A stretch of DNA of 64,000 nt from Candidatus Omnitrophota bacterium (GTDB taxonomy: Bacteria > Omnitrophota > Gorgyraeia > JAFGHF01), in contig JBHPFV010000005.1 in NCBI GenBank assembly GCA_042571705.1, forward strand, positions 4,628 through 68,627. Reading direction: 5' to 3'. Shown here piece by piece: positions 2,047 through 61,637 of this stretch (positions are counted from its first letter, which is position 1; each line of letters begins with the position of its first letter). Both the position numbers and the translations under genes were made by a program. The notes under the pieces were generated by a model, which saw only the letters and a list, made by a program, of their open reading frames with translations, made no database searches and was not told the DNA's origin.

Positions 2047-2087
2047 GAGCGAAAAATGTAAAGCGAAAAGCGAAAAATGGGGCGAAA

Positions 2088-3983: not shown

Positions 3984-3992
3984 GAGCGAAAA

Positions 3993-46983: not shown

Positions 46984-47070
46984 TGGTGCCGAAGCGGGGA
47001 TTCGAACCCCGACGAGATTGCTCTCACAACGCCCTGAACGTTGCGTGTCTGCCAGTTTCACCACTTCGGC
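46984..47070 (-). tRNA. tRNA-Leu(CAG), type II (long variable arm), CCA encoded
   Basis: The minus strand reads GCCGAAGTGGTGAAACTGGCAGACACGCAACGTTCAGGGCGTTGTGAGAGCAATCTCGTCGGGGTTCGAATCCCCGCTTCGGCACCA. Acceptor GCCGAAG/CTTCGGC. Anticodon stem CAACG/CGTTG with loop TTCAGGG. T-arm CGGGG-TTCGAAT-CCCCG. Confidence 0.9.
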
Positions 47071-47694
47071 CTAATTTAGAAATTGTTCAATTAATTTACG
47101 TTTACGCTGAAGACAGGGAATATTTTTGTTGTAGTAGATTGCATTTAATAGAGTTATTGATGCTGTTTTAGCATATCTGAGTTCATAAGCCCCAGAAACT
47201 TTTCCTATGAATCCGTCAACTCGAAATAAGCTTTTAATGCGCGATTTTAACCATTTAAGATGTTTTAGGCTGCCTGAGAAAAAACGCGTGTATAGTCGTT
47301 GACTATTAGGATATACTGCATCTTGAAAAACAGAGAGGCTTCCGTCTCCATCAATATACCCTCGTAAGTAATCACTCAAGTATTCGTCTGGTATAGATAA
47401 CTTAGATATAGTCTTGCTCTTCTTTGGGGTCAATCCTATCTGCTGAAGCCACCTATATAAATTTACATTCCCAAATTGGACAAAATAGTACTTTTTGGTT
47501 TTTGTGTATCCACTTGCCTTTAAACTTATCCTATTGTTTATTCCTAGGCAACGCTTGAAGGTATTAATTTGTTCTATGTCTTTAGATACCAATACCATAT
47601 GTCTACCGTCAGATGATAGATTACCATCTGTTGCCAATAGCCCGACCGCATAAGCTAGGTCATGTCTCCAAATTATTTCTGTTTTATTCCTCAT
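47071..47694 (-). CDS. Free-standing double-motif LAGLIDADG homing-endonuclease-family protein
   Basis: Motif 1 LAYAVGLLATDGNL and motif 2 YLRGYIDGDGSL, about 100 aa apart. The stop codon (47071-47073) directly abuts the tRNA 5' end (47070). Confidence 0.85.
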   Translation of the reverse strand: MRNKTEIIWRHDLAYAVGLLATDGNLSSDGRHMVLVSKDIEQINTFKRCLGINNRISLKASGYTKTKKYYFVQFGNVNLYRWLQQIGLTPKKSKTISKLSIPDEYLSDYLRGYIDGDGSLSVFQDAVYPNSQRLYTRFFSGSLKHLKWLKSRIKSLFRVDGFIGKVSGAYELRYAKTASITLLNAIYYNKNIPCLQRKRKLIEQFLN

Positions 47695-47733: not shown

Positions 47734-47794
47734 CAGTTTACGGTCCTAATCCTTGATTTTTCCTCTTCGCTGTGCTATATTAAGAGTCTGTGAA

Positions 47795-48250
47795 ATGGAC
47801 GAAAAGATACTGGCCCAAAATAAGGCTGCCCAGCGGGATTACCACATTCTCGAGATCTATGAGGCAGGGATTGAGCTCAAAGGCACAGAGGTTAAGTCGC
47901 TCAGAGCCGCTCAGGCTAATCTGAAAGATAGCTTTGCCAGGATTAGGGACTCGGAGGTCTTTTTGTTCAATATGCATATTAGCCCCTATGAATTTGGCAA
48001 TCTCGCTAATGTTGAGCCCAAGCGAGAACGCCGGCTTTTGTTACATAAAGCTCAGATTAGGAGATTACTAGGCCAGACTACTGTTAAGGGGTATGCGCTG
48101 GTCCCCTTGAAGGCTTACCTGAAGAAGGGCAGGGTCAAGATCGAATTGGCCCTGGTTAAAGGCAAGCGCTTATATGATAAGCGCCAGGATATTAAAAGAC
48201 GCGAAGATGCTCGTGAGGTACAACGGGCTTTACGTTTTAAAAACCGTTAA
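47795..48250 (+). CDS. smpB: SsrA-binding protein SmpB
   Basis: AQNKAAQRDYHILEIYEAGIELKGTEVKSLR and RERRLLLHK motifs. The ORF opens at 47753; Met 47795 gives the canonical N-terminus. Confidence 0.9.
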   Translation: MDEKILAQNKAAQRDYHILEIYEAGIELKGTEVKSLRAAQANLKDSFARIRDSEVFLFNMHISPYEFGNLANVEPKRERRLLLHKAQIRRLLGQTTVKGYALVPLKAYLKKGRVKIELALVKGKRLYDKRQDIKRREDAREVQRALRFKNR

Positions 48251-48267: not shown

Positions 48268-48651
48268 GGGGGTGACAGGCTTCGATCTGGATTGATCGAG
48301 GTGAGAGTGGCATGTGGAGGTTGTCAGGTGGCCTCCTTAAAAACCTGGCACGTTACAAACGCAAACTCAAACAGAGTTGCACGCGCCAGCCTTCCTGCTG
48401 GCGTGCTAGTTCCAGTCCTCAGCTAAAAAGCTGAGGCCTCCATTAGTCTTGCCTACGGGGCTAAATGGAGCATAAGTAGGATAGCCGGGTAGCTTTAGCT
48501 TTTGGGGTACTTGGCGAATTTTAAAAAGCTTTTCTTTTCCTGATCCCGCTTACCGGAGCTGGGAAAGAGAACTTAAAAAGGTAAGCTAAACATGTAGAGG
48601 CTCCTGCTGCGATGTCCAGGGACGCGAGTTCGATTCTCGCCACCTCCACCA
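48268..48651 (+). ncRNA. ssrA: tmRNA (SsrA)
   Basis: The 5' GGGGGTGAC pairs with the 3' ..CACCTCCACCA, giving a G3:U pair. tRNA-like T-arm GCGAGTTCGATTCTCGC. Located immediately after smpB. The candidate tag ORF is 48361-48426 (ANSNRVARASLPAGVLVPVLS*) with its stop in a hairpin loop, but the frame is not certain. Confidence 0.9.
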
Positions 48652-48718: not shown

Positions 48719-48866
48719 TGTAATTTAGAGATCTAAATCCTTTGGCCACTATATACAATAGTGGTCCTTTTTTTGTCTTTTGGGCAAGTTAAAATTGGCT
48801 TATAATGTACGTAACATATTGAAATACAATGAGATGAGGTTAATTGTTAAAATTTTAAAAAAATAC

Positions 48867-48895
48867 TTGACAAGTTAATAGTTGAGTGGTAAACT
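48867..48895 (+). promoter_or_regulatory. Sigma-70 promoter TTGACA-17-TAAACT upstream of the MarR gene
   Basis: ttgaca at 48867-48872, taaact at 48890-48895. Preceded by an A-tract. Confidence 0.55.
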
Positions 48896-48919
48896 ATATT
48901 GTAGGGAGGTAAGGTGACG

Positions 48920-49402
48920 ATGAGCATATTTAGAGAATTAGGTATTCGCTCCGGTAAAGACAGGTTAAACGAGGAAGTAGTATATAATATTGCACGTTCT
49001 TATGTATACGTTGAACAGGCTATTTCTAATTTCCTTACTAAATATAATTTAAGTTCTGCTAAGTTTAATATCCTTCTTATGGCCAAACATAGAGGGGAGG
49101 ATAAAGGTTTACCACAGCGTGAAATTTCAAGATTGCTTTTAGTGACTACTTCTAACATAACTCGTATGGTTGATAAGCTTGAAAAAGAGAGCTATGTTGA
49201 GCGTTTAGCTAAAGAAGGTGACAGAAGAGTTAATTTAATTAAGATTACGGAAAAAGGCGCAACTCTATTGGACGAAATCTGGCCGCATTATAAAGTAATG
49301 GTTGATAAGCTTGTTGCTTCTCCATTATCTGCTCAGGATAAGCTGACAATAATTAGCTTATTAGAGAAGTTCAAATGTGAGAACACGGAGAATAAATCGT
49401 GA
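48920..49402 (+). CDS. MarR-family transcriptional regulator
   Basis: Winged HTH (LPQREISRLLLVTTSNITRMVDKLEKESYVERLAKEGDRRVNLIKITEKG). A GGGAGG RBS lies 10 nt before ATG 48920; the ORF opens at GTG 48914. Confidence 0.85.
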   Translation: MSIFRELGIRSGKDRLNEEVVYNIARSYVYVEQAISNFLTKYNLSSAKFNILLMAKHRGEDKGLPQREISRLLLVTTSNITRMVDKLEKESYVERLAKEGDRRVNLIKITEKGATLLDEIWPHYKVMVDKLVASPLSAQDKLTIISLLEKFKCENTENKS

Positions 49403-52400
49403 GAAGATCACTTAGCCAAAGAGGCTTTAAGGCACTTTTGGCAACACAGTTTTTAGGCGCTTTTAATGATAACGCGTTTAAATTAATAGTTTCTCTTTTT
49501 GCAGTCAATTTGTTTGTTCAACAACGCGGAGGCACAGAGTATCTTTCACTTCCGGCAGCTATTTTTATACTCCCATTTTTGCTCTTTTCAACCTATGCGG
49601 GATTTGTTGCAGATAGAGTGTCCAAGCATAAGATTATTATTTGGACAAAAGTCCTTGAATTAATAGTTATGGTGCTTGGGTTTGCAGCATTAAGCGTAGG
49701 AAATATATGGGCAATACTCGTTGTTCTCTTTTTAATGGGGCTGCAGAGTACTTTTTTTGGTCCTGCTAAATACGGAATTCTTCCTGAAATGCTCGATGAT
49801 GAAGACTTATCCGAGGGTAATGGCGCTATCCAATTATGGACTTATGTGGCCATTATATCTGGTATGGCCTTTGGAGGATATATTTTTTACGTAACAAAAA
49901 ACAATCTTGGCCGTGCCGCATTATTCTTTATTGCAATCTCAATTTTAGGGATCATCACTAGCTTTTTTGTGACCAGAGTGCGTTCGTCTGGTTCGCGAAG
50001 GCGATTTGAATGGAATTTCCCTGCAGAGATTCTAAAGAATATTAAGAGAATCGCTTTGGTTAAAGCAATCTGGCTTTCAATAGTTGGGCTTGTGTATTTT
50101 GGTTTACTTGCTTCTATTTTTCAATTGAATATCCTGATTTATGCACAGAAAATCATGCGGGTCAATGAGCTTTATACAGGGTTTCTTTTAACTTTATTGG
50201 CGTTGGGCGTTGGTGTTGGCAGTATTGTTGCCGGTAAAATCTCAGCGAAAAAGGTGGAATTTGGATTTGTACCTTTAGGTTCGCTTGGTTTGAGTTTATT
50301 CTCAATATTACTGGGCTTTACTTATTCTTCCTATGCTATTACAGCAATTTGCCTTTTTATTTTTGGCGTTAGCGCAGGGTTCTATATCGTCCCATTAAAT
50401 ACATATATCCAACAGCAAAGTCCACAGGACAGGCGCGGGCAAGTATTGGCAACATTAAATTTTCTTTCTTTCCTGGCCGTTCTTATGGGTACTGGGATCA
50501 TTTTTGTGCTTCGAGAATGGATAGAACTAAATGCGGCTAGGATATTTTTTGTTTCGGGGATTTGCTCTATTTTGGTTACAGCGTATATCTTTCGTGTCCA
50601 GCCTATTGCTTTTATACGTTTATTGAATTGGTTTTTTACTCATTCGTTTTATAAGATGAAAGTTGTTGGTACAGAAAACGTACCCAGAGAAGGCGGGGCG
50701 TTATTGGTATGTAATCACGTATCATTTATTGACCCTTTGCTTATTCAGGGCTCTCTGCAGCGTCCTATTCGTTTTCTGATCTGGAGAGCAGTATTTAAGT
50801 TGCGCGCATTTAATTCTATTTGCAGAATCATGAAAGTAATCCCGATCTCTTTCACGGACCAGGCAAAGACAATAGCAGAGTCTTTAGAAGAGGCGCGCAG
50901 GGCAATTAAACAAGGGGAATTAGTATGTATCTTTGCAGAAGGCCACCTTACCCGCACCGGGAATATGCTCAGTTTTAATCGAGGATTTGAGCATATTATG
51001 AAGGGAATAGAAGCGCCAATAATACCTATGTATATCGATCGTATGTGGGGAAGTATTTTTAGTTTTAAAGACGGAAGGCCTTTCTGGAAAATGCCAAAAA
51101 CGATACCCTATCCATTAACGTTGTGTTTTGGTAAGCCAATGGCTTCTGATTCAGAAGTACATCAGGTCAGGACATCTGTCCTGGAGTTGTCATCCGAAGC
51201 CTTTAAGCTAAGAGGTAGAGATCAGGAAAAATTGCATATTGCATTCGTTAATGAAGCAAAGAAACATCCTTTTAAATTCTGCATAGCTGATTCGACTAAA
51301 ATGAATTTGAATTACTTGCAGGCACTTGCGAGTGTTATGGTTATATCCAAAAAATTATTTCCATCAAGTAGCAAGTACCAGATAGGCGAAATGATTGGAA
51401 TTTTACTGCCGGCTTCATGTATTGCATCATTGACTAATGGGGCAACCTTATTTGCGGGTAAAATACCAGTTAATCTTAATTTTACTGCTTCAAAAGAGAG
51501 TATTGATTCCTCCATTAAACAATGCCAGATAAAGACAATTATTACATCTAGAAAGTTCCTTGAGAGATTAAAATGGGATATACAAGATAACATGGTTTTC
51601 GTAGAAGACCTGAAAACTAATATTTCTTCTTTTGATAAGATTACATCATTTCTGGCCGCACTACTGCTACCTAGGTGGGCAATACGAGCCTTATATATCA
51701 GAGGAGACAAACACAATATTAATGATGTGGCAACAGTAATTTTCTCAAGTGGGAGTACAGGAGAACCTAAAGGAATAATGCTTTCGCATGGGAATATTTT
51801 TTCAAATATAGAAGGATTCTATCAAGTTATGCATTTGGAGCCCGACGATATTATAGTTGGGGTGTTACCGTTCTTTCATTCATTTGGTTTTACAGCAACA
51901 TTATGTCTGCCCCCGGGATGCGGAATAGGAGCAGTCTATCATAATAATCCCTTAGATGCGGCAACAATCGGGAAGATAATACAGAAGTTTAAGGCTACTA
52001 TTTTGCTAGGCACGCCTACATTCTTTTCAGCGTATATTAAGAAATGCAGCGCAGAGCAATTTAAAAGTGTCCGCTATGCGCTTGCCGGAGCCGAAAAACT
52101 AAAACAAAATATTGCCGATGCCTTTAGCAAAAAATTTGGCATTATTCCCTTTGAAGGATATGGCGCTACTGAACTATCTCCAATTGTTTCTTTAGGGATT
52201 TCTGATCAAATCAATGAAGATGAGCGTTTAACTCAACCCGGATACAAACCTGGAAAAGTCGGTCAGCCTATTCCTGGGGTGGCGGCAAAGATAGTTGATC
52301 CCGATACTTTTAAGCTGCTACCTTATAATGAAGAGGGATTGTTGCTGATAAAGGGACCGAATGTTATGCTTGGATATTTGAATCAGCCAGAAAAGACAAA

Positions 52401-52833
52401 GGAAGTGATTAAGGATGGCTGGTATATAACAGGAGATATTGCCACAATGGATGAAGACGGCTTTATTCAAATTACAGATAGGCTCAGCAGATTTAGTAAG
52501 ATTGGCGGAGAAATGGTGCCACATATCAAGATTGAGGAAGAGATTACTAATATTTTAGGCGCAGTGGAAACCTTGTGCGCTGTGACATCAGTTCCGGATG
52601 AAAAGAAGGGAGAACGGCTTGTTGTTCTTTATAAAGGAGATATAGATATTGAAAAATTGTGGGAGCAGTTGAATGCAAGTCAGATCCCTAAATTATGGAT
52701 TCCCAAGAAAGATAGTTTTTATAAAATTGAGAATATTCCTCTTTTAGGAAGCGGCAAACTAGATCTCAAGAGAGTTAAACGGATGGCTCAAAATTTAGCA
52801 AAAGATGTTAGTGAATCAGGAAAGCGAGAGTAA
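49399..52833 (+). CDS. Triple fusion: MFS lysophospholipid transporter (LplT-like) + PlsC-type acyltransferase + acyl-ACP synthetase (Aas-like AMP-ligase)
   Basis: 12-TM MFS N-terminus (FLGAFNDNAFKL). HxxxxD acyltransferase motif (NHVSFID). AMP-binding motifs (FSSGSTGEPKG, GYGATE, GDIATMDEDG). The GTG start overlaps the MarR stop (GTGA). Confidence 0.85.
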   Translation: MRRSLSQRGFKALLATQFLGAFNDNAFKLIVSLFAVNLFVQQRGGTEYLSLPAAIFILPFLLFSTYAGFVADRVSKHKIIIWTKVLELIVMVLGFAALSVGNIWAILVVLFLMGLQSTFFGPAKYGILPEMLDDEDLSEGNGAIQLWTYVAIISGMAFGGYIFYVTKNNLGRAALFFIAISILGIITSFFVTRVRSSGSRRRFEWNFPAEILKNIKRIALVKAIWLSIVGLVYFGLLASIFQLNILIYAQKIMRVNELYTGFLLTLLALGVGVGSIVAGKISAKKVEFGFVPLGSLGLSLFSILLGFTYSSYAITAICLFIFGVSAGFYIVPLNTYIQQQSPQDRRGQVLATLNFLSFLAVLMGTGIIFVLREWIELNAARIFFVSGICSILVTAYIFRVQPIAFIRLLNWFFTHSFYKMKVVGTENVPREGGALLVCNHVSFIDPLLIQGSLQRPIRFLIWRAVFKLRAFNSICRIMKVIPISFTDQAKTIAESLEEARRAIKQGELVCIFAEGHLTRTGNMLSFNRGFEHIMKGIEAPIIPMYIDRMWGSIFSFKDGRPFWKMPKTIPYPLTLCFGKPMASDSEVHQVRTSVLELSSEAFKLRGRDQEKLHIAFVNEAKKHPFKFCIADSTKMNLNYLQALASVMVISKKLFPSSSKYQIGEMIGILLPASCIASLTNGATLFAGKIPVNLNFTASKESIDSSIKQCQIKTIITSRKFLERLKWDIQDNMVFVEDLKTNISSFDKITSFLAALLLPRWAIRALYIRGDKHNINDVATVIFSSGSTGEPKGIMLSHGNIFSNIEGFYQVMHLEPDDIIVGVLPFFHSFGFTATLCLPPGCGIGAVYHNNPLDAATIGKIIQKFKATILLGTPTFFSAYIKKCSAEQFKSVRYALAGAEKLKQNIADAFSKKFGIIPFEGYGATELSPIVSLGISDQINEDERLTQPGYKPGKVGQPIPGVAAKIVDPDTFKLLPYNEEGLLLIKGPNVMLGYLNQPEKTKEVIKDGWYITGDIATMDEDGFIQITDRLSRFSKIGGEMVPHIKIEEEITNILGAVETLCAVTSVPDEKKGERLVVLYKGDIDIEKLWEQLNASQIPKLWIPKKDSFYKIENIPLLGSGKLDLKRVKRMAQNLAKDVSESGKRE

Positions 52834-52842
52834 GGAGAAACA

Positions 52843-53595
52843 ATGCAGCAAATAGCTTCAAGTAGATTGTACACAAAAGACAAGGTTACGCTTGCCTATG
52901 AACATGCGCAGCATGGACATCGGTCTATAATCATTGTCTGCCCGGGATTCTTTAATAGCAAAAAGAATAGATGGATGCGCAAAAGTAGAGAATTGCTTTC
53001 TAGAGAGCATGACACAATGATTTTTGATTTTCGTGGACATGGCGAAAGCGGCGGAAAATTCTCCTGGTCGGCAAAGGAGCATCGCGATGTCGAGGCAATC
53101 CTTGATTATCTCAAGCCCTATAATTATCGCTCCACAGGTATTCTTGCCTATTCTTTAGGTGCAGCAGCGTCAATTAACGCAGTAGCCAGGAGAAAAAGTG
53201 TCCAGAGTATGATTTTAGTTAGTTGTCCATATAGTTTCTGGAAGATAAATTATCACTTTTGGGAACCGGAAATGCTTTCCGACCTTAAAGATAATTTTGA
53301 GTGCGATTGGGAAGGTAAGGGGGCCCGAGCGGGCAGTTTATTAAACCCTAAAAGAAAGCCGATTAATGAAATCAAAAAAATAAAGGATATTCCTGTTTTC
53401 TTTATACATGGTAAGCGGGACTGGATTATCAAGGATTATCATTCACAGAGGTTATATGAAGCTGCCCAGGGCGTTAAAAAGATTGAATTAATAGAAGATG
53501 GTCTGCATGCCGAACGACTGATTCAACAACATCCAGAAAAGATGAAGACTTTAATTCTTGATTGGTTTAAAAGTACCTTAAAAAAGGAGGTCTGA
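52843..53595 (+). CDS. Alpha/beta-hydrolase fold protein
   Basis: DFRGHGESGG, nucleophile elbow AYSLGAA, and late D/H (GKRDW, GLHAE). Confidence 0.75.
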   Translation: MQQIASSRLYTKDKVTLAYEHAQHGHRSIIIVCPGFFNSKKNRWMRKSRELLSREHDTMIFDFRGHGESGGKFSWSAKEHRDVEAILDYLKPYNYRSTGILAYSLGAAASINAVARRKSVQSMILVSCPYSFWKINYHFWEPEMLSDLKDNFECDWEGKGARAGSLLNPKRKPINEIKKIKDIPVFFIHGKRDWIIKDYHSQRLYEAAQGVKKIELIEDGLHAERLIQQHPEKMKTLILDWFKSTLKKEV

Positions 53596-53596
53596 C

Positions 53597-54328
53597 ATGA
53601 GGTGGCTACTAATATCTGCGATTCAATTATTGTTTACTCTTTTTCTATATGCTGTTGGTATTATCATTATTGGTCTGGCTGTTTTTCCTGGCGTATTACT
53701 AGTGTTTAATGTCTGGAAGACTGCCGCAGTTTATCAGCCAGCGATAAGGATTTTGTTTCTATGTTTATCCATGACAGCGGCGTATTTTGTTTATGGAATT
53801 AGTCTAATTCTTCTTGTTGGTATCGTCAGGATTGTTTTTAGGCTATCTCTTCGGGAGGGAGAATACCCCTTACATTCACTCGGCGCCTTTAGATGGGCCT
53901 TAATTAATTCACTTGTATTAGTTGTTTCTAATACGTTTATGGATTTTATTTTACTCACCCCATTTATTAATATTTTTTATCGCTTAATGGGGGCTAAGCT
54001 TGGCAAGAATGTGCAGATAAACACTAAATTTTGTGCGGATCTTTCGCTGCTTGAAATTGGCGATGGTGCTGTTATCGGAGGACATGCTACAGTGATTGGG
54101 CATTCGTTTGAGCGCAGCAGAATAATCTTGAAAAAGGTAAAAATTGGCAAAAGCTCTATTATTGGCCTGAATTCAGTTATTTTACCCGGAGCAGACATAG
54201 GAGATGGTGCGCTTATTGCCGCAGGTGCTGTATTGGCCAAAAATACGGTAGTTGAGCCACGCAACGTTTATTTTGGGGTTCCGGCCACATCGCTTAAAGA
54301 AAGACATAAGCATAAGCGTGAAGAGTAA
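53597..54328 (+). CDS. Membrane-anchored left-handed beta-helix (hexapeptide repeat) acyltransferase-like protein
   Basis: Four TM segments, then hexapeptide repeats (IGDGAVIGGHATVIG, IGKSSIIGLNSVILPGADIGDGALIAAGAVL). Confidence 0.7.
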   Translation: MRWLLISAIQLLFTLFLYAVGIIIIGLAVFPGVLLVFNVWKTAAVYQPAIRILFLCLSMTAAYFVYGISLILLVGIVRIVFRLSLREGEYPLHSLGAFRWALINSLVLVVSNTFMDFILLTPFINIFYRLMGAKLGKNVQINTKFCADLSLLEIGDGAVIGGHATVIGHSFERSRIILKKVKIGKSSIIGLNSVILPGADIGDGALIAAGAVLAKNTVVEPRNVYFGVPATSLKERHKHKREE

Positions 54329-54344
54329 TAAAGAGAAAGTTGCG

Positions 54345-56066
54345 ATGAAAAAACTTACAGTTACCCTGACGACAATAAAAGAGCGCGATTCTATTTATCG
54401 ATTACGGCACGACGTTTATGCAAATGAACTTAATCAACATTCTCCAAATGTAGACGGCAGATTAAGCGATAAGCTGGATGAGGCCAATGTTTATTTCACG
54501 GCGAAAGCGGATGGCAAGGTAGCTGGGTTTATCAGCATTACACCGCCAGCGAGTCGAAGTTATTCTATAGATAAATATTTCTCAAGAGACACCTTGCCTT
54601 TTGACTTTAACAATGGATTGTATGAAGTTAGGCTTTTGACTGTGGTTAATCCTTTCAGAGGCAGTATAACTGCAGGTCTTTTGATGTATGCTGCATTCCG
54701 ATGGATAGAAGAAAACGGAGGCACTAGAATAGTCGCGATCGGGCGGCGAGAAGTCTTGGACCTATATTTAAAAGTAGGGCTAAAATCTCTTGGTCAACAG
54801 GTTAAAGCCGGCGCTGTTACTTATGAGCTTTTGAGTGAGACAACAGATAATATTATAAGGAAGTATTTAAGCAAATATAAGAACCAATTAGAGAAACTGA
54901 GGGAAAAAGTCAATTGGCAGCTTGAGATCCCATTTTATGGTCAAGACTCCTGTTATCACGGCGGTACCTTCTTTAAGGCTGTTGGTGAAGAGTTTGACAA
55001 TCTTGATAGGAGGAATAATATTATCAATGCTGATGTGCTTGACGCTTGGTATCCCCCTTCTCCAAAAGTAATTAGGGCTTTACAGCAACATCTCCCGTGG
55101 CTTTTGTATACATCTCCTCCAACAAATTGCGAAGGGATGCTGAGGACAATTGCGCGTGTGCGTAATATTGACCCTGGATGTATTTTGCCAGGAGCAGGCT
55201 CTTCCGACTTGATTTTTTTGGCCTTGCGGCAATGGCTTAATCTTTATTCAAAGGTTCTCATCCTGGACCCAACCTATGGAGAATATGCGCACATACTTGA
55301 AAAGATCATAGGTTGTGAAGTTGATCGCTTTGCCCTTTCGCGTAATAAGGGATATGTACTCGATTCTATGCAGCTAAAGGAAAAACTTAATGCTAATTGT
55401 TACGATATGGTTATAATTGTTAATCCAAATAGTCCTACTGGACATTATGTCCCTAGGGAAGAGCTGGAAAGTGTTTTTAGACATGTTTCTCCAAAGACGC
55501 TTGTTTGGGTAGATGAAACATATGTTGAATATGTTGGACCTGGTAATTCTCTTGAATATTTTGCTTCTCAAAGAGATAATGTAATTGTTTGTAAATCGAT
55601 GTCTAAGGTTTACGCACTTAGCGGGTTACGTGCCGCTTATATCTGTACTTCAGCTAAATTAATTAGAGCCTTAAAGAGAATCACTCCGCCTTGGGCTGTT
55701 AGCCTTCCAGCCCAAATAGCGGCAGTTAAAGCCCTGCAGGACCCTGGATATTATATGGGGAGGTATAAAGATACACATCTCCTGAGAAATGAATTAGCTG
55801 TGCAACTCAAGAGTTTAGATGGTTTGGATATTGTTCCTGGCGTGGCGAATTTTCTCCTTTGTCATTTACCTGAAGATGGGCCAGATGCCGCAACAATTCT
55901 AAATAGATGTCAAAAATATGGCCTATACCTGCGTGATGTGACTGCAATGGGAACATCGATTGGTAGACATGCCTTTCGTATCGCCGTTAAAGACAAAGAC
56001 ACAAACAGGCGAATGATAGGAATTCTAGGGAAAGTTTTACAAAAAGAGGCAATGATAGAAAATTAG
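54345..56066 (+). CDS. Fusion: GNAT-like N-acyltransferase (N-acyl amino acid synthase/OlsB-like) + class I/II PLP aminotransferase (HisC/CobD-like)
   Basis: The N-terminal ~190 aa contain YRLRHDVYANELNQH and FRWIEENGGTRIVAIG. The C-terminal part contains NPNSPTG and SMSKVYALSGLRAAY (PLP lysine context). The ORF opens at 54252; Met 54345 follows the upstream stop. Confidence 0.7.
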   Translation: MKKLTVTLTTIKERDSIYRLRHDVYANELNQHSPNVDGRLSDKLDEANVYFTAKADGKVAGFISITPPASRSYSIDKYFSRDTLPFDFNNGLYEVRLLTVVNPFRGSITAGLLMYAAFRWIEENGGTRIVAIGRREVLDLYLKVGLKSLGQQVKAGAVTYELLSETTDNIIRKYLSKYKNQLEKLREKVNWQLEIPFYGQDSCYHGGTFFKAVGEEFDNLDRRNNIINADVLDAWYPPSPKVIRALQQHLPWLLYTSPPTNCEGMLRTIARVRNIDPGCILPGAGSSDLIFLALRQWLNLYSKVLILDPTYGEYAHILEKIIGCEVDRFALSRNKGYVLDSMQLKEKLNANCYDMVIIVNPNSPTGHYVPREELESVFRHVSPKTLVWVDETYVEYVGPGNSLEYFASQRDNVIVCKSMSKVYALSGLRAAYICTSAKLIRALKRITPPWAVSLPAQIAAVKALQDPGYYMGRYKDTHLLRNELAVQLKSLDGLDIVPGVANFLLCHLPEDGPDAATILNRCQKYGLYLRDVTAMGTSIGRHAFRIAVKDKDTNRRMIGILGKVLQKEAMIEN

Positions 56067-56076
56067 GAACTAAAAG

Positions 56077-57348
56077 ATGATAACAAGACTCGTAAGGAAT
56101 ATGCTTTCCGACCAAAGGGATGATTATGTTTTTTACGCATCCGATGATAAAGCCTTGTTTGTTGATCCCAAAAAGGAGTTCGGGTTATACATTCACATCC
56201 CTTTCTGCAAAAGCATGTGTCCTTATTGTCCATACAACAAGGTTTTTTACAAAAAGGAATTGGCTACTCAATTCAAAGACGCCATTGTAAATGAGATTAA
56301 AAGATATAACGCGAAATTAGGACAAAGGCAATTCTATTCACTATATGTTGGGGGAGGAACACCGACATTACTTATCGATGAATTAAAAGATATTGTTAAT
56401 GAATTAAAGAGGTTATTTATATTAGATGGGCCGCTCGCAGTTGAAACAGTACCAAGTGATATTACAGATAACAAGGTTAGGAAACTAAAGGAAATAGGTT
56501 TTGATTATATAAGTCTTGGTGTTCAAAGTTTCAATGATAAATATCTTTCTCTTATTGGGCGTAATCATAATGCTGACGAAACAAAGAAAGCCATCGAGCT
56601 TATTAGTCAGCATAGGTTTAAGTTGTTCAACATTGATCTGATTTTCGCATTTCCAGAACAAAATTTGAAAGAGCTACAATCAGACCTAATAGAATGTTTA
56701 TCCTTCAATCCAGACCAGATTACTTGTTATCCTTTATTTACCTTTCCTTATACGGCTGTCGGAAAATATCTCAAAATAAAAAAATTAAAAATGCCTCCTA
56801 TAAAACAACGAAAAGCGATGTATTATCTAATAAGTGATTTCTTTAAGAAAAATTCATATTATCAATCGTCAGTCTGGGGATTTAATAGGATAAAAAAGGA
56901 ATCGTATTCTTCTGTCACAAGAGACTACTATATTGGATTGGGAGCAGGGGCCGCCTCATATACAGGTGAATACTTTTATTTTAATACTTTCTCTTTGAAA
57001 GAATACATGAAAACCTTAAACCAGAAGTTACCTATTGCCTTAAAAATGAATGTGAGTGATAGAATGAGTCGGCTTTTTTGGTTATATTGGCGATTTTATG
57101 AAACGCGTATTCCGTTTGATAAATATAAACAAGAATTTCAGAGCGATATAAAAAAAGATTTCGGTTTCATTTTCAAGTTAATTGAACGCATGAATTGGGC
57201 AGATAAAAATGGCCCGAGCGAATTAAAACTCAACAAGATAGGTTGCCATTGGATACATTTAATACAGAATCAGTATGCATTAAACTATGTAAATAAAATA
57301 TGGCCTATTTGCCAGAAAATACCATGGCCCCAAAAGATTCCACTATGA
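56077..57348 (+). CDS. HemN-like radical SAM enzyme (HemW / class C methyltransferase-type)
   Basis: HIPFCKSMCPYCPY (CxxxCxxC), YVGGGTP, GVQSF. Confidence 0.8.
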   Translation: MITRLVRNMLSDQRDDYVFYASDDKALFVDPKKEFGLYIHIPFCKSMCPYCPYNKVFYKKELATQFKDAIVNEIKRYNAKLGQRQFYSLYVGGGTPTLLIDELKDIVNELKRLFILDGPLAVETVPSDITDNKVRKLKEIGFDYISLGVQSFNDKYLSLIGRNHNADETKKAIELISQHRFKLFNIDLIFAFPEQNLKELQSDLIECLSFNPDQITCYPLFTFPYTAVGKYLKIKKLKMPPIKQRKAMYYLISDFFKKNSYYQSSVWGFNRIKKESYSSVTRDYYIGLGAGAASYTGEYFYFNTFSLKEYMKTLNQKLPIALKMNVSDRMSRLFWLYWRFYETRIPFDKYKQEFQSDIKKDFGFIFKLIERMNWADKNGPSELKLNKIGCHWIHLIQNQYALNYVNKIWPICQKIPWPQKIPL

Positions 57349-58253
57349 GTAAAAATTTATTACATAAGACATGTTATTATTTATGGTGGACTTATCAATG
57401 TAAGTTTCACAAGAGGAAAATCCCTCTAACAAGCTCCTTAATACTTACTGATAAATGTAACTTGAAATGTCAACATTGTACAGTTGCTAATCTGGGGTAC
57501 GCAGAGTCAAGCTACAAAGACGTCATAAAAGATATTAGGACATTATACAATATGGGATCTCGTATGCTTGTAATAACGGGCGGAGAGCCGTTCTTATGGG
57601 AGGATGGAGAATATAGGCTTAATAATGTGGTTAGAGAGGCAAAACGATTAGGTTTCTTTCGAATAGTCGTGTGTACTAACGGAACGTTTGAATTGAAGTC
57701 AGACGCAGATTATCTTTGGGTTAGCCTTGATGGATTTCCCAAAGAACACAATACGATTAGAGGCGATGTATATGGGGATGTAATACATAATATATCCCAA
57801 AGCAACCACGAAGGCATTTATATAAACTTTACAATAAGCAAGGTTAACCTTATGGATTTAGAAGATTCTGCGGATGTTGTTTTGAATTGTAGGGATATTC
57901 GAGGAGTGTTGTTTCACCTGTGTACGCCATATATTGGCTCTGATGAGACCATAATGCTGGATGAGGAGGAAAGGAATATAGCAATTAACAAACTACAACG
58001 AATCAAAAAAAGACATCCAACGAAAGTATCTAATACATTTGATGGCATTAACCTACTAAAGAGTAATAGATGGGAAAGGCCAATATGGGCAAGTATTGTT
58101 ATCAATCAAGGAAAGATAAGCCCTTGCTGTTGTAGAAAAGGTATATATGATAGCGATGTGTGTTTGAAATGCGGTTGTTCGCCTGCAGTTGAAACATTAG
58201 TATTGCAAAGGCTGAAACCTTTAGCAATAATTGAGAATTTGAGATTTTTGTAG
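57345..58253 (+). CDS. Radical SAM enzyme with Cys-rich C-terminal auxiliary-cluster-like region
   Basis: LTDKCNLKCQHCTV (CxxxCxxC), ITGGEPF, and a C-terminal PCCCRKG...CLKCGC. ATGA overlap with the upstream gene. Confidence 0.8.
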   Translation: MSKNLLHKTCYYLWWTYQCKFHKRKIPLTSSLILTDKCNLKCQHCTVANLGYAESSYKDVIKDIRTLYNMGSRMLVITGGEPFLWEDGEYRLNNVVREAKRLGFFRIVVCTNGTFELKSDADYLWVSLDGFPKEHNTIRGDVYGDVIHNISQSNHEGIYINFTISKVNLMDLEDSADVVLNCRDIRGVLFHLCTPYIGSDETIMLDEEERNIAINKLQRIKKRHPTKVSNTFDGINLLKSNRWERPIWASIVINQGKISPCCCRKGIYDSDVCLKCGCSPAVETLVLQRLKPLAIIENLRFL

Positions 58254-58293: not shown

Positions 58294-58467
58294 CTATTTT
58301 TTGCGCACTGCCTTAGCAACGGTTTTGTGGTCAATTCCTAAGATCTTGCCTATCTTGGTATAGGATAAGCCCAAAAGGTGTAATTTGATTGCTTTTTGGG
58401 CTAATTTTTGGTATAAATAAGGGTACTTTACTGGAAGGATCTTAATGTGAGCCTGGATCTCAGCCAT
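58294..58467 (-). CDS. Small HTH protein or recombinase/transposase-type HTH remnant
   Basis: MAEIQAHIKILPVKYPYLYQKLAQKAIKLHLLGLSYTKIGKILGIDHKTVAKAVRKK*. Most of it lies in a 128-nt repeat that recurs at 61495-61621. Confidence 0.4.
   Translation of the reverse strand: MAEIQAHIKILPVKYPYLYQKLAQKAIKLHLLGLSYTKIGKILGIDHKTVAKAVRKK
58303..58430. repeat. Direct repeat A (~128 nt) encoding the HTH segment on the minus strand
   Basis: Aligns with 61495-61621. The last ~50 nt are almost identical (aaaaggtgtaatt..ttgctttttgggctaattt.tggtataaataagggtacttta). Confidence 0.8.
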
Positions 58468-58864
58468 AGTTCGAATTGGTTGTGACCGGGTCCACCAAAA
58501 TTTTGCGACAAAGCAAAAATTTGGTGGAGGTCTGAACGAGCGTTGCGAGCCGACAAGGCGAGCAGCGAGTGAAGACACCACATCCTTAACAATTAGAGAA
58601 GAACAATGGATGCCCCTGCTAAAAGTATGTTGGGCACCACCACCTTATCAAACGTTGAAAAAGGGGACACTTCTTTTTTTGCCGACATTTTCACTTTGCA
58701 AAAATAGGGACTGTCCTTTTTTTGAACAGTAGCAAAAAAAGACGGTTCTATTTTAAAGTAATTAAGGGTTGTGTCCCTAGAATCCAAAATTTGCACGGAA
58801 CTACGTATCATATTGTTATCAACATCGGCCAGCCCGGGGAGGGTAGATTCAATTGTTCCAGAAT

Positions 58865-61057
58865 ATGTTTTCTAACAAGTCAGACAAGAATAATTTAAAT
58901 CGAAAAATGATGTTGCGTCTTTTCGCAATAAGTTTTGGGTCTCTTTTTTGGGAGATTCTGCTAATTAGATGGATTCCCTCAGAACTTCCTTTTCTCGCTT
59001 TTTTCCGTTCGCTTGTTCTCCTGGCCTGTTTCTTAGGTTTAGGCATAGGTTGTATTGCCTATAAGCGCATTAAACTTGGAAATGGATCACCTGTGATATT
59101 ATTTCTTACGGGTATATTTATTATTAGCCTTATTATCTCAGCCGGAGGATCTAATCTTAGATCAAGAGGTTTTGGTAATAAGGTAGGAATATTTCAGCAA
59201 GAGGCAAAAAATGTAGCAGCCCAAAGAGACAAACCTAATCTAGTTGATTTTACAATTGAATTTGAAGGAGATAAAAGTGGTGGTAAATTAGTCATTATAT
59301 GCACTTTTATTTTGGTAAGCCTGACTTTTATTCCTATGGGGATTATGTTAGCCCGTTGTTTTAGTAATTTAAGTCCTATACCAGCTTATCTAATCAATGT
59401 TTTGGGAGCGCTTATTGGAACTTTAACTTTTATAGGAGCATCAGTCACGATGCTCTCACCTCCTTATTGGTTTTTAGTTGGTTTAGCCGCATGCTGGTTT
59501 ATTCTTCCCCGTACCCATAAATGGCAAGCTATTTTTTTTACGCTGTCAATTTTACTTCTTGGGGTTATTTTCTATCAGAACCGTCATCCCAATGTTATTT
59601 GGTCTCCTTACCAACGAGTAGAATACCGTCTTAAATATACTAATTTAGAAAAATTCCCATCTATTTCCCGCAAAAAAGCACTTGTTGAAGGCCCGATATA
59701 TGTTAATTATGATTTTCATCAGTGCATGGTGGATTACGGTTTTACGAACAACAGAGAAATACTGATAGAGGTATTAAAATCTTTTCATAAAAATATTGAT
59801 CGTTCATTTTCTTTGCCAGGTGATTTATATATAACTTACCATCTGCCATACTTTTTTTGTAAACCCCAAAATGTGTTAATTATTGCTTCAGGAGCTGGCA
59901 ATGAAGCTGCTGCTGCATTACGAGAAGACGTTGAACAAATAGATGCCGTTGAAATTGACCCTGCTATTATAGAAATAGGACGGAAATTTCACCCGGAACA
60001 ACCATATAGAGATTCACGTGTAAATATTATTTGTGATGATGCCCGCGCCTTTCTTAATCGCACAGATAAGAAGTATGACTTAATAGTTATGAATCAAGTT
60101 GATTCACATTCCCAGTTCGCATCCAGTGCTAATTTGCGACTTGACAGTTATATCTATACAGTTGAATTCTTTGAACAGGTGCGCCGCCACCTTAGTCCGA
60201 ATGGTATTTTTGCTATGGAATTTAGCGGGTTTCACTGGCATAATTTGCAATGGTCGCGTGAACGAATGAAGGAAATCCTCTGGCGGGTATTTGGTTATAC
60301 ATGTACACAGCAAGTATTTCGTGGCGGTGGAGGACCAATGTTCCTAATTACCCCTGCGGCTCGACCAGGCCCGGTTTCATATAATAACAATATTTATGTT
60401 AGCACAGACAACTGGCCCCAGTTTTACTTGCGCGGGCCAATAATTCCAAAAGCATATGTGCGTCTAATTGCATATGTATTGCTGATAACGGTAATAGGTG
60501 TTTTTATCGGCAATCCCAAAAGTCTCGCGCGGATTGATACTCATTTTATGTTTTTAGGGGCAGCATTTATGATGTTTGAGATTAAAAGCATATCAGAACT
60601 TTCGCTATTGTTTGGTTCGACATGGTTGATTAATTCTCTGGTGATTATAACAATCCTGCTTGCAATTGCCGCAGCCAACCTTGTTATATTAAAATTTAAA
60701 AAAATACCTTACTCAATATGTTACGTTGTAATATTCATTTCACTTATCCTGGAAATAATATTTCCTGCCAATAGGTTTTTAAGCTTTAGCTTTATCTATC
60801 GATTAATGGTGTCTTTTCTTTATGTTGCGGTTCCTATTTTTGGTGCCGGTTTAGTATTTGCTACATCCTTTCGCCGAGCAATTCAGCCTCCTCTAGCTCT
60901 TGGATGGAATATTCTTGGGGCAATAATAGGAGGATTAGGTGAATATCTTAGTCTTATAACAGGTATTAGAGTTCTTGGTTTTTACATACTTGGGCTGTAT
61001 GTTTTATCCCTTATTACCTTATCACGGTCTCACCTCAAAATCAACAATCTTACTTGA
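58865..61057 (+). CDS. Polytopic membrane protein with spermidine-synthase-like (aminopropyl/methyltransferase fold) domain
   Basis: N- and C-terminal multi-TM regions flank VLIIASGAGNEAAAAL..IDAVEIDPAIIEIGRKF..YDLIVMNQVDS. The ORF opens at TTG 58853. Confidence 0.75.
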   Translation: MFSNKSDKNNLNRKMMLRLFAISFGSLFWEILLIRWIPSELPFLAFFRSLVLLACFLGLGIGCIAYKRIKLGNGSPVILFLTGIFIISLIISAGGSNLRSRGFGNKVGIFQQEAKNVAAQRDKPNLVDFTIEFEGDKSGGKLVIICTFILVSLTFIPMGIMLARCFSNLSPIPAYLINVLGALIGTLTFIGASVTMLSPPYWFLVGLAACWFILPRTHKWQAIFFTLSILLLGVIFYQNRHPNVIWSPYQRVEYRLKYTNLEKFPSISRKKALVEGPIYVNYDFHQCMVDYGFTNNREILIEVLKSFHKNIDRSFSLPGDLYITYHLPYFFCKPQNVLIIASGAGNEAAAALREDVEQIDAVEIDPAIIEIGRKFHPEQPYRDSRVNIICDDARAFLNRTDKKYDLIVMNQVDSHSQFASSANLRLDSYIYTVEFFEQVRRHLSPNGIFAMEFSGFHWHNLQWSRERMKEILWRVFGYTCTQQVFRGGGGPMFLITPAARPGPVSYNNNIYVSTDNWPQFYLRGPIIPKAYVRLIAYVLLITVIGVFIGNPKSLARIDTHFMFLGAAFMMFEIKSISELSLLFGSTWLINSLVIITILLAIAAANLVILKFKKIPYSICYVVIFISLILEIIFPANRFLSFSFIYRLMVSFLYVAVPIFGAGLVFATSFRRAIQPPLALGWNILGAIIGGLGEYLSLITGIRVLGFYILGLYVLSLITLSRSHLKINNLT

Positions 61058-61484: not shown

Positions 61485-61494
61485 ACGGAGGCGG

Positions 61495-61621
61495 CGAACT
61501 GCTTTGGCGGCGGTTTTGTGTTCGATTCCTAGGATTTTACCGATCTTGATATACGAGAGGCCTAAAAGGTGTAATTCGGTTGCTTTTTGGGCTAATTTCT
61601 GGTATAAATAAGGGTACTTTA
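61495..61621. repeat. Direct repeat B (~127 nt), 5'-truncated HTH remnant; also supplies a possible outward promoter
   Basis: Aligns with 58303-58430. On the + strand, ttgctt-17-tataaa (-10 at 61603-61608) sits 30 nt before the amidase ATG. Confidence 0.75.
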
Positions 61622-61637
61622 GAGGAATTTTAATAAA

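Follow-up and report, generated by a model that had tools for sequence, protein, structure and literature searches.

A predicted N-acyl amino-alcohol lipid synthase beside acyl-remodelling and radical SAM genes in an Omnitrophota genome

A single nas gene of Gemella (haemolysans) yields N-oleoyl serinol in Escherichia coli (10.1101/2025.04.11.648385), an N-acyl serinol cluster is recorded for Bacillus sp. 2_A_57_CT2 (MIBiG BGC0001683; PMC12795557), and a 2025 review speculates that N-acyl serinols might be O-acylated into phospholipid-like species (PMC12594153). Small phosphorylated amino alcohols are products of pyridoxal-phosphate (PLP) enzymes: in Campylobacter jejuni, Cj1437 converts dihydroxyacetone phosphate (DHAP) into (S)-serinol phosphate and Cj1436 converts serine phosphate (Ser-P) into ethanolamine phosphate (PMC11800397), and RtxA's N-terminal domain is a DHAP aminotransferase (PMC3222319). 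The locus described here lies in a stretch of 64,000 nucleotides (hereafter the window) of contig JBHPFV010000005.1 from a Candidatus Omnitrophota bacterium, in which a block of seven genes at ~48.9–58.25 kb encodes, among other proteins, a fusion of a GNAT domain with a PLP-dependent domain (GNAT-PLP). This two-domain enzyme is widespread but unstudied, and its probable product is an N-acylated amino-alcohol lipid.

All seven open reading frames (ORFs) are on the + strand downstream of the transfer-messenger RNA (tmRNA) gene, ssrA. The original prediction for this DNA had described seven co-directional, tightly packed genes of given sizes and domain content, with a GTGA overlap at 49399 and an ATGA overlap at 57345; each ORF, each domain call, and both overlaps were confirmed, and the remaining intergenic gaps measure 9, 1, 16, and 10 bp. 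From this spacing, the seven genes are probably transcribed as one operon in this genome. Two of the products are radical S-adenosylmethionine (SAM) enzymes, designated rSAM1 and rSAM2. In order, the genes are as follows:

48920..49402, + strand: MarR-family regulator, 160 aa (PF01047, 44 bits)
49399..52833, + strand: LplT(MFS)-PlsC-Aas triple fusion, 1144 aa (NF006386; Pfam MFS_1, Acyltransferase, and AMP-binding)
52843..53595, + strand: alpha/beta hydrolase of the lysophospholipase/monoacylglycerol-lipase type, 250 aa (Hydrolase_4, PF12146, 60 bits)
53597..54328, + strand: membrane-anchored left-handed beta-helix (LbH) acyl/acetyltransferase, 243 aa (Hexapep)
54345..56066, + strand: GNAT-PLP bifunctional enzyme, 573 aa (GNAT ~54345-54914; PLP ~54942-56066)
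56077..57348, + strand: rSAM1, HemN-like radical SAM enzyme, 423 aa (PF04055; CKSMCPYC, GGGTP)
57345..58253, + strand: rSAM2, small radical SAM enzyme, 302 aa (CNLxCxHC, C-terminal CCCRxGI..C..CG)

That genes lie tightly packed in one genome does not count as evidence that they share a pathway, and the main value of the locus is the GNAT-PLP family with its lipid-phosphate partners, not the juxtaposition with radical SAM genes. The GNAT-PLP gene starts at ATG 54345, not at TTG 54252. Scanned alone, the GNAT domain matches the FeeM model PF21926 at 29.1 bits (cut-off 27), with the full-length protein falling narrowly under it at 25.9; the same model matches in eight of ten family members. Acetyltransf_5 is missed (21.1, cut-off 22.4), and the isolated GNAT domain gave nothing significant when searched by profile against the PDB. 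The AlphaFold model of the domain (pLDDT 80) is closest by TM-score, as compared in Foldseek, to the LuxI-type acyl-homoserine-lactone (AHL) synthases—with query-normalised values of 0.78-0.80 for BjaI, 0.73 for RpaI, 0.71 for TofI, and 0.69 for LasI—whereas generic GNATs reach ~0.55-0.64; a Foldseek search with the full-length GNAT-PLP model returned matches of the PLP domain only. By PF21926 and by predicted fold, the GNAT domain would be a FeeM/LuxI-like N-acyl-amide synthase, and not a member of an unrelated acetyltransferase family, an outcome that had been named beforehand as a way for the proposal to fail.

The PLP domain retains a complete fold-type I catalytic set. Residues 205-207 read HGG and residues 390-393 DETY; K421 is the PLP lysine, D390 the Asp that binds the pyridine N, and R530/R545 the C-terminal arginine pair, and these five residues positions, counting N362 with them, are invariant in 16 sequences. 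The domain scores 131 bits against PF00155 (Aminotran_1_2). The scores of 181.2 bits against HisC (TIGR01141, cut-off 276.55) and 177.5 bits against CobD (TIGR01140, cut-off 290.55) both miss their cut-offs and, at 181 versus 177 bits, are profile scores that fail to separate a transaminase from a decarboxylase. Since the HisC cut-off is missed, the public annotation of such proteins as histidinol-phosphate transaminase is an over-call; because the two scores are nearly equal, the Tyr/Phe position was used as the discriminator instead. At the Tyr of DE[TA]Y, the solved HisC enzymes likewise have Tyr, whereas Phe takes its place in the solved decarboxylases CobD (1lc5) and SMUL_1544, a distinction based on few solved structures that provides modest evidence for a transaminase. 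The DE[TA]Y form is present in 121 of the 121 family sequences showing the motif, 110 of which also have HGG ~184 residues upstream. With ~20-25% identity, the domain is about as far from HisC as from CobD and from the Ser-P decarboxylase SMUL_1544, three enzymes with phosphorylated substrates.

The subfamily to which this PLP domain belongs has the signature HGG...DE[TA]Y...SK[VA]YALSG and includes both stand-alone and fused members. An exhaustive library search at E <= 1e-30 recovered 503 representative clusters; the best 150 of these comprise ~53 stand-alone PLP proteins (~365 aa), ~50 GNAT-PLP fusions, 11 longer forms, and 36 that are unclassified or fragmentary. PAP2_C is a sphingomyelin-synthase-type domain that moves phospho-head groups to the primary hydroxyl of ceramide or diacylglycerol, and at least eight representatives are PAP2_C-GNAT-PLP fusions (P0415, P0417, P0430, P0443, P0458, P0468, P0469, P0488), with one protein of this architecture also matching AtPDCT weakly. 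Another relative (P0422) is a methyltransferase-PLP-cytidylyltransferase fusion. Furthermore, on four Streptomyces plasmids, most of them large and linear, a GNAT-PLP homologue of 44-46% identity that bears the annotation histidinol-phosphate transaminase shares a 4-bp overlap with a CdsA-family gene, a 'phosphatidate cytidylyltransferase' paralogue (coupled pairs at L125 9989-12552, L126 9995-12576, L127 5989-8567, and in L129). Taken together, the PAP2_C fusions, the methyltransferase-PLP-cytidylyltransferase protein, and the coupling to CdsA point to a lipid phosphomonoester built from an amino-alcohol phosphate.

GNAT-PLP relatives number in the thousands. An alignment-based scan of one genome per species gave at least 507 confirmed loci, the best-scoring 80 of which were kept with 10-kb flanks; all window proteins were compared with these loci and with nine further contexts by tblastn and blastp. 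Among the 80 species genomes, GNAT-PLP proteins of 53-61% identity cover at least eight phyla, the labels being Verrucomicrobiota, Planctomycetota, Acidobacteriota, Gemmatimonadota, Chloroflexota, Nitrospirae, Bacteroidota, Proteobacteria, Hydrogenedentota, and Armatimonadota, as well as others. The closest relative (L124, 73% identity) lies between an XRE-type regulator and a DUF2157 protein, and the next (L085, 69%) stands alone directly after tmRNA. Fifteen of the 80 genome loci, from Planctomycetota, Nitrospirae, and Verrucomicrobiota, have a PlsC- or Aas-type gene no more than 10 kb from GNAT-PLP. A Planctomycetota locus (L004) contains GNAT-PLP, an M28 peptidase, the triple fusion, a second FeeM-like GNAT, and a Hydrolase_4 protein; in a Nitrospirae locus (L006), the triple fusion is 2.3 kb downstream of GNAT-PLP; a Limisphaerales locus (L064) has an Lnt-like gene, GNAT-PLP, Aas, and an alpha/beta hydrolase; and a Rariglobus (Opitutales) locus (L048) has LysR, LplT, Aas, and GNAT-PLP. 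In five Verrucomicrobiae loci (L013, L024, L030, L031, L045; ~6-19 kb), GNAT-PLP is found inside a type II fatty acid synthase (FAS)/polyketide synthase (PKS)-like cluster with an acyl carrier protein (ACP), a GCV_T-like protein, a 4HBT thioesterase, FabG, FabD, a FabA/ApeI-like dehydratase, PlsC, an AAT-family acyltransferase, a polysaccharide deacetylase, and a fused ketosynthase. The composition of this cluster recalls that of aryl-polyene-type clusters.

The triple fusion itself belongs to a defined family: it scores 1359.5 bits against the NF006386 equivalog (cut-off 1221) over residues 2-1134 of 1144, and the three Pfam domains are present and in order (MFS ~49462-50490, PlsC ~50656-51036, AMP-ligase ~51253-52380). 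The copies adjoining GNAT-PLP in the Planctomycetota and Nitrospirae loci are orthologues with 43-49% identity. The expected combination of N-acylation, O-acylation, and acyl activation, which had been likened to the synthesis of ornithine-type aminolipids, is therefore borne out by GNAT-PLP beside Aas/LplT/PlsC in several phyla. The ornithine-type head group is not, since the fusion to a PLP domain implies in-situ production of the amine.

We infer, with about even confidence, that the operon joins several modules and that its core makes N-acyl serinol phosphate, which is then O-acylated; the substrates, the products, and the order of the steps all belong to this inference, whereas gene content, family assignments, and the patterns of neighbours and fusions are observed. 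The functional core would be MarR, LplT-PlsC-Aas, the alpha/beta hydrolase, and GNAT-PLP (module A). In the likeliest route to a phosphorylated amino alcohol, the PLP domain would form serinol phosphate from DHAP and glutamate by transamination, and the GNAT domain would join it with acyl-ACP to give N-acyl serinol phosphate—that is, an amide-linked single-chain lyso lipid analogous to lysophosphatidic acid or to a minimal ceramide phosphate. The Aas domain would load scavenged fatty acids, possibly freed by the hydrolase, onto ACP, the PlsC domain would attach a second, ester-linked chain, LplT would flip lyso forms across the membrane, and MarR would gate expression of the operon. The lyso-lipid substrate of the triple fusion may accordingly be an amide lipid instead of 2-acyl-glycerophosphoethanolamine. 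The membrane LbH transferase (module B) might acylate or acetylate a leftover hydroxyl or amine of the head group, and the radical SAM pair (module C) would merely happen to sit at the end of the operon here.

A broader claim is more tentative, and on balance we do not expect it to hold in full: GNAT-PLP would found a widespread new class of membrane lipids with an N-acyl amino-alcohol phosphate (serinol) backbone. Serinol would replace glycerol phosphate or the sphingoid base, and an ester chain added by PlsC/Aas would give an amide analogue of phosphatidic acid; CdsA-like enzymes would activate this with cytidine monophosphate, and PAP2_C would add head groups, giving mini-ceramide phospholipids. 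Such lipids would then occur in Verrucomicrobiota, Planctomycetota, Acidobacteriota, Omnitrophota, and Streptomyces, and the radical SAM pair would modify them anaerobically in the window operon and in one further locus (L094, see below).

Several points weigh against the serinol phosphate scheme. GNAT-PLP is solitary in ~80% of loci, so Aas/PlsC cannot be obligatory, and the 80 genome loci, as the best-scoring of at least 507, are biased towards Verrucomicrobiota. The choice of serinol is made by analogy: Cj1437, Cj1436, and RtxA are likened to the PLP domain by reported reaction, not by sequence, and the Gemella enzyme, reportedly described by Cohen and colleagues in 2017 as an N-acyl synthase domain joined to an aminotransferase domain, would have the architecture of 54345-56066. 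Co-transcription of the seven genes is read from their spacing only. The alpha/beta hydrolases of the clusters in L004 and L064 are analogous to that of the window but only 22-24% identical to it, so orthology between clusters was rejected on sequence; against the GNAT-PLP loci, the window hydrolase gave two matches only, both weak and generic. Finally, the HGG motif, which we take to be a CobD-like N-terminal motif, and the slightly better structural fit to CobD (rmsd 2.7 Å, compared with 3.4 Å) make a decarboxylase route viable.

That route is the main rival, although we consider it unlikely: the PLP domain would be a decarboxylase of the CobD/SMUL_1544 type, converting Ser-P (or threonine phosphate, Thr-P) into ethanolamine phosphate (or aminopropanol phosphate), and the GNAT domain would then make N-acyl ethanolamine phosphate, a precursor of N-acylethanolamine-type lipids. 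The PLP model does fit CobD best (TM 0.84, rmsd 2.7 Å), SMUL_1544 ranked second in the PLP-domain profile search, the methyltransferase-PLP-cytidylyltransferase relative suggests a sequence from phosphoethanolamine through phosphocholine to CDP-choline, and Cj1436, of the same group, is a Ser-P decarboxylase (PMC11800397). However, the invariant Tyr in DE[TA]Y is that of HisC, with Phe in both solved decarboxylases; N-acyl ethanolamine phosphate would have no free hydroxyl for PlsC-type partners unless its chain were 3-hydroxylated; and the sole reported product of such a bacterial N-acyl synthase is N-acyl serinol (10.1101/2025.04.11.648385).

A second alternative, which we regard as rather improbable, dispenses with a shared pathway: GNAT-PLP, like LuxI or the N-acyl synthases of the gut, would make a diffusible N-acyl amide signal under the control of MarR, and the remaining genes would be rearranged housekeeping neighbours. 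In four related loci (59-62% identity), two or more of which are from Omnitrophota, MarR and GNAT-PLP do make up a two-gene unit that is complete in itself, and in keeping with such an idea are also the solitary GNAT-PLP genes of most genomes, the structural proximity of the GNAT domain to AHL synthases, and the remnants of a helix-turn-helix (HTH)/transposase-like repeat at the end of the block. Against it, GNAT-PLP is again associated with Aas/LplT/PlsC, in differing gene orders, in three or more other phyla, and the PAP2_C fusions and the CdsA coupling argue that the product is metabolised further as a lipid and not simply released. With respect to the MarR protein, translation more likely starts at ATG 48920, preceded by GGAGG, than at the mechanically assigned GTG 48914; the resulting N-terminus, MSIFRELGI, resembles the MNIFRELGI of homologues. 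The protein is 60% identical to the MarR directly preceding GNAT-PLP in L088/L089, and L086/L087 have a MarR gene ahead of GNAT-PLP as well. In a related genome (L088 7217-9052 and L089 1905-3740), genes for a resolvase, an excisionase-like HTH protein, and a tyrosine integrase, as well as a run of small phage-like ORFs, are found immediately upstream of the MarR/GNAT-PLP pair.

The other alternative of about the same doubtful standing is the original prediction's own model, in which all seven genes serve one pathway and the radical SAM pair methylates, cyclopropanates, or cross-links the lipid chains. The single co-conserved cluster that it supposed was not recovered: the seven-gene order occurs in 0 of 84 GNAT-PLP loci and in 0 of 33 rSAM2 loci, and it is the radical SAM genes and the LbH gene that are not co-conserved. 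Across the 84 distinct loci examined, neither rSAM1 nor the LbH protein had a homologue 10 kb or less from GNAT-PLP; rSAM2 gave one weak match (29% identity, L034); and a radical SAM gene ~2 kb downstream of GNAT-PLP in an Omnitrophota locus (L086) was compared with neither rSAM1 nor rSAM2. The nearest relatives, with 73% and 69% identity, have no radical SAM gene near GNAT-PLP. The block is thus a one-off join of at least three modules that are distributed separately elsewhere.

The radical SAM genes constitute one of these modules. The rSAM2 gene starts at ATG 57345, and its product ends in CCCRKGIYDSDVCLKCGC. Proteins of this family are ~300 aa long, with CNLxCxHC, GGEP, and an invariant C-terminal CCCRxGI...C..CG, and homologues of 50-76% identity are found in Omnitrophota, Spirochaetota, WOR-3, Psychrilyobacter (P. 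atlanticus, Fusobacteria), Geobacter, and Actinomycetota, with further family members in Desulfuromonadales. Among the 26 rSAM2 loci with enough flanking sequence to be assessed, which come from many anaerobes, 24 have an rSAM1 homologue adjacent or within ~3 kb, mostly directly adjacent, and either upstream (41-79% identity) or downstream (30-37%). A search of these surroundings for a conserved third partner gave none. None of the block's lipid genes accompanies the pair in the 33 other loci where rSAM2 was matched, no homologue of MarR, Aas, the hydrolase, LbH, or GNAT-PLP being detected, and the nearest copy of the pair (L090, 76-79% identity) sits elsewhere in that genome, behind a methyltransferase and an unrelated hydrolase.

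The assignment of the two proteins to known families also speaks against the one-pathway model. For rSAM1, the scores (with cut-offs) are 219 (355) for PRK08629, 214.9 (380) for STM4012 (NF006067), 185.4 (205.4) for HemW (TIGR00539), 162.3 (400) for ChuW-HutW (TIGR04107), and 131.4 (325) for HemN (TIGR00538), all of them missed, with the Psychrilyobacter partner protein showing the same pattern; rSAM2 reaches 47 bits against its top family, AhbC (650), 35.6 against MoaA (TIGR02666; 284), and 35.5 against Tes (NF045702; 450), where residues 34-149 align to positions 78-204 of 486. The class C methylase models were all missed as well, and neither protein reaches any curated family cut-off, HemW, ChuW, Tes, MoaA, and the SPASM/twitch maturases included. 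Neither falls in the HemW or MoaA housekeeping families, where a placement would have spoken against the original prediction, and the likeness to class C methylases and to Tes drawn there is a lead at most. The GC (guanine plus cytosine) content of the pair lies 4-7 points below that of GNAT-PLP, and the pair abuts a 134-nt repeat with an HTH remnant; both features are consistent with rearrangement.

In favour of one pathway, the 10-bp gap and the 4-bp overlap tie the radical SAM genes to GNAT-PLP, and no terminator-like site was found between them. A minority case for a lipid substrate comes from L094, an unrelated locus and the only one besides the window that joins the pair to lipid head-group genes, where it ends a tight operon (296-5222) of CDP-alcohol phosphatidyltransferase, CdsA, Methyltransf_20, rSAM1, and rSAM2, and from the class I methyltransferases, some weakly similar to CMAS, that recur near the pair in L090, L103, and L106, and also in L094. 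Overall, the radical SAM pair is best treated as a self-contained two-enzyme unit unrelated to the lipid genes, with a lipid role possible.

The LbH gene is a further separately distributed module. Members of its family are 60-75% identical to the window protein, the taxon-named matches being mostly from Omnitrophota, and no homologue is present in any other locus examined, whether a GNAT-PLP or an rSAM2 locus. In sequence, the protein resembles a single transmembrane (TM)+LbH unit of the Pls/PosA C-termini (TIGR02353; 85.8 bits, cut-off 423.1, positions 68-217 of 695) and, more weakly, the lipid O-acetyltransferase YvoF (NF058585; 57.9 bits, cut-off 300). Identity as a Pls/PosA nonribosomal-peptide-synthetase terminal domain was rejected, the cut-off being missed and the tandem TM+LbH repeats reduced to a single unit. 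An LbH protein near GNAT-PLP in Streptomyces was likewise rejected as a relative (E = 0.31).

The surroundings of the block include the following features:

47753-48250: smpB, upstream of tmRNA
48268..48651, + strand: tmRNA gene (ssrA), found by ARAGORN and matching Rfam RF00023 at 162 bits; upstream boundary of the block
48744..48766, + strand: terminator-like hairpin with a T-run 3' of ssrA, separating ssrA from the operon
48867..48895, + strand: sigma-70-like promoter, TTGACA-17-TAAACT with extended TG, the top site within 48-62 kb
58303..58436, - strand: first copy of a 134-nt repeat with an HTH peptide remnant; downstream boundary of the block

The promoter is a consensus match only, and the total number of such sites in the region is no higher than the shuffled expectation. 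The tmRNA tag reads ANSNRVARASLPAGVLVPVLS, being unusually long and differing at its end from the usual LAA; that of L085 is the conventional ANNNLALAA. Further upstream, a free-standing homing-endonuclease-like LAGLIDADG ORF of 207 aa (47071-47694, - strand; PF14528, 28 bits) abuts, with zero gap, tRNA-Leu(CAG) (46984-47070, - strand), and an ORF of 1712 aa (41683-46821) has no Pfam match at E <= 0.01. Downstream, the 134-nt direct repeat has copies at 58303-58436 and 61494-61627 with 84% identity, both encoding on the minus strand the same HTH peptide (KYPYLYQKLAQKA..LHLLGLSY.KIGKILGI.HKT.AKAVR), which has weak similarity to the Sleeping-Beauty-transposase HTH; the repeats are probably remnants of a mobile-element gene. 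Between the two copies, directly downstream of the block, lies a gene (58853-61057) for a 734-aa polytopic membrane protein with a central spermidine-synthase/class I methyltransferase domain (PF01564, 60 bits), narrowly missing the fused MFS/spermidine synthase subfamily (33.9, cut-off 40).

The block had also been described as AT-richer than the 6-26 kb core of the window, which it is: its GC content is 0.382, compared with 0.455 for 6-26 kb and 0.457 for 1-29 kb. It is not distinct from its own flanks (0.393 at 29.0-48.9 kb and 0.380 at 58.3-61.1 kb), so the contrast, though real, does not mark a separate unit. Within the window, GC steps occur at ~29000 and ~61100, dividing regions of ~0.46 (1-29 and 61-64 kb) from one of ~0.35-0.41 (29-61 kb); this low-GC zone far exceeds the block and takes in ssrA and smpB. 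The weakest explanation, that the block is a genomic island integrated at ssrA as a known hotspot, draws on its position directly 3' of tmRNA and on its AT-richness relative to 1-29 kb, but is highly improbable and was rejected: the block's GC content equals that of the 20 kb upstream of ssrA, no integrase or recombinase was found among the window ORFs, no att-like direct repeat of the tmRNA 3' end was found in 46.5-62 kb, and the tmRNA of L085 likewise directly precedes GNAT-PLP, making the position after ssrA syntenic, with no insertion.

If the proposed function is correct, an enzyme annotated as histidinol-phosphate transaminase in at least hundreds of genomes would be a one-polypeptide N-acyl amino-alcohol lipid synthase, and a systematic mis-annotation would be corrected. 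The N-acyl serinol signals of the gut microbiome would be tied to a wider environmental lipid metabolism, and a gene marker would be available for amide-linked, glycerol-free lipids in Verrucomicrobiota, Planctomycetota, Acidobacteriota, and candidate phyla. Separately, a conserved two-gene radical SAM module has been defined that occurs in cultivable anaerobes (Psychrilyobacter, Geobacter).

The two radical SAM enzymes stand apart from the systems that they most resemble. Although rSAM1 shares with the HemN family a HemN-type core with CxxxCxxC and GGGTP, it differs in having no detected HemN_C domain and in missing all equivalog cut-offs. Like STM4012 in STM4011/STM4012, it is paired with a second radical SAM enzyme; unlike in that system, STM4011 is not among the best families matched by rSAM2. 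With the Tes/MSS lipid synthases, rSAM2, at 302 aa compared with a Tes model of 486 positions, shares the radical SAM core only.

The PLP domain, in turn, has the same fold as the structures of HisC, CobD, and SMUL_1544 and both of their C-terminal arginines, but forms its own subfamily at the low identity given above. Together with Cj1437, Cj1436, and RtxA, these are PLP enzymes acting on small phosphorylated C3-C6 substrates (PMC11800397; PMC3222319), HisC using histidinol phosphate and CobD converting Thr-P into aminopropanol phosphate. In the systems OlsB/OlsA, GlsB, and OlsF, an acyl-ACP-dependent N-acyltransferase of the FeeM/OlsB clan is likewise followed by a PlsC-family O-acyltransferase (PMC11631085). 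Unlike in OlsB/OlsA, the amine in the window system is apparently made by the fused PLP enzyme and is not free ornithine or a proteinogenic amino acid; the words 'aminotransferase' and 'fusion' are absent from the text of a 2024 aminolipid review. The triple fusion, as a member of NF006386 above the cut-off, corresponds to the LplT/Aas re-acylation of E. coli (the bacterial Lands cycle), but unlike that system shares an operon with an N-acyl synthase. The N-acyl serinol synthases of Gemella and Bacillus, for which one gene gives N-oleoyl/N-palmitoyl serinol, are likened to GNAT-PLP by product, not by sequence. Unlike these enzymes of human-microbiome bacteria, the GNAT-PLP family is environmental, spans many phyla, and is linked to Aas/LplT/PlsC, CdsA, and PAP2_C—a linkage that points to a phosphorylated intermediate and to conversion into membrane-type lipids, not to a released signal.

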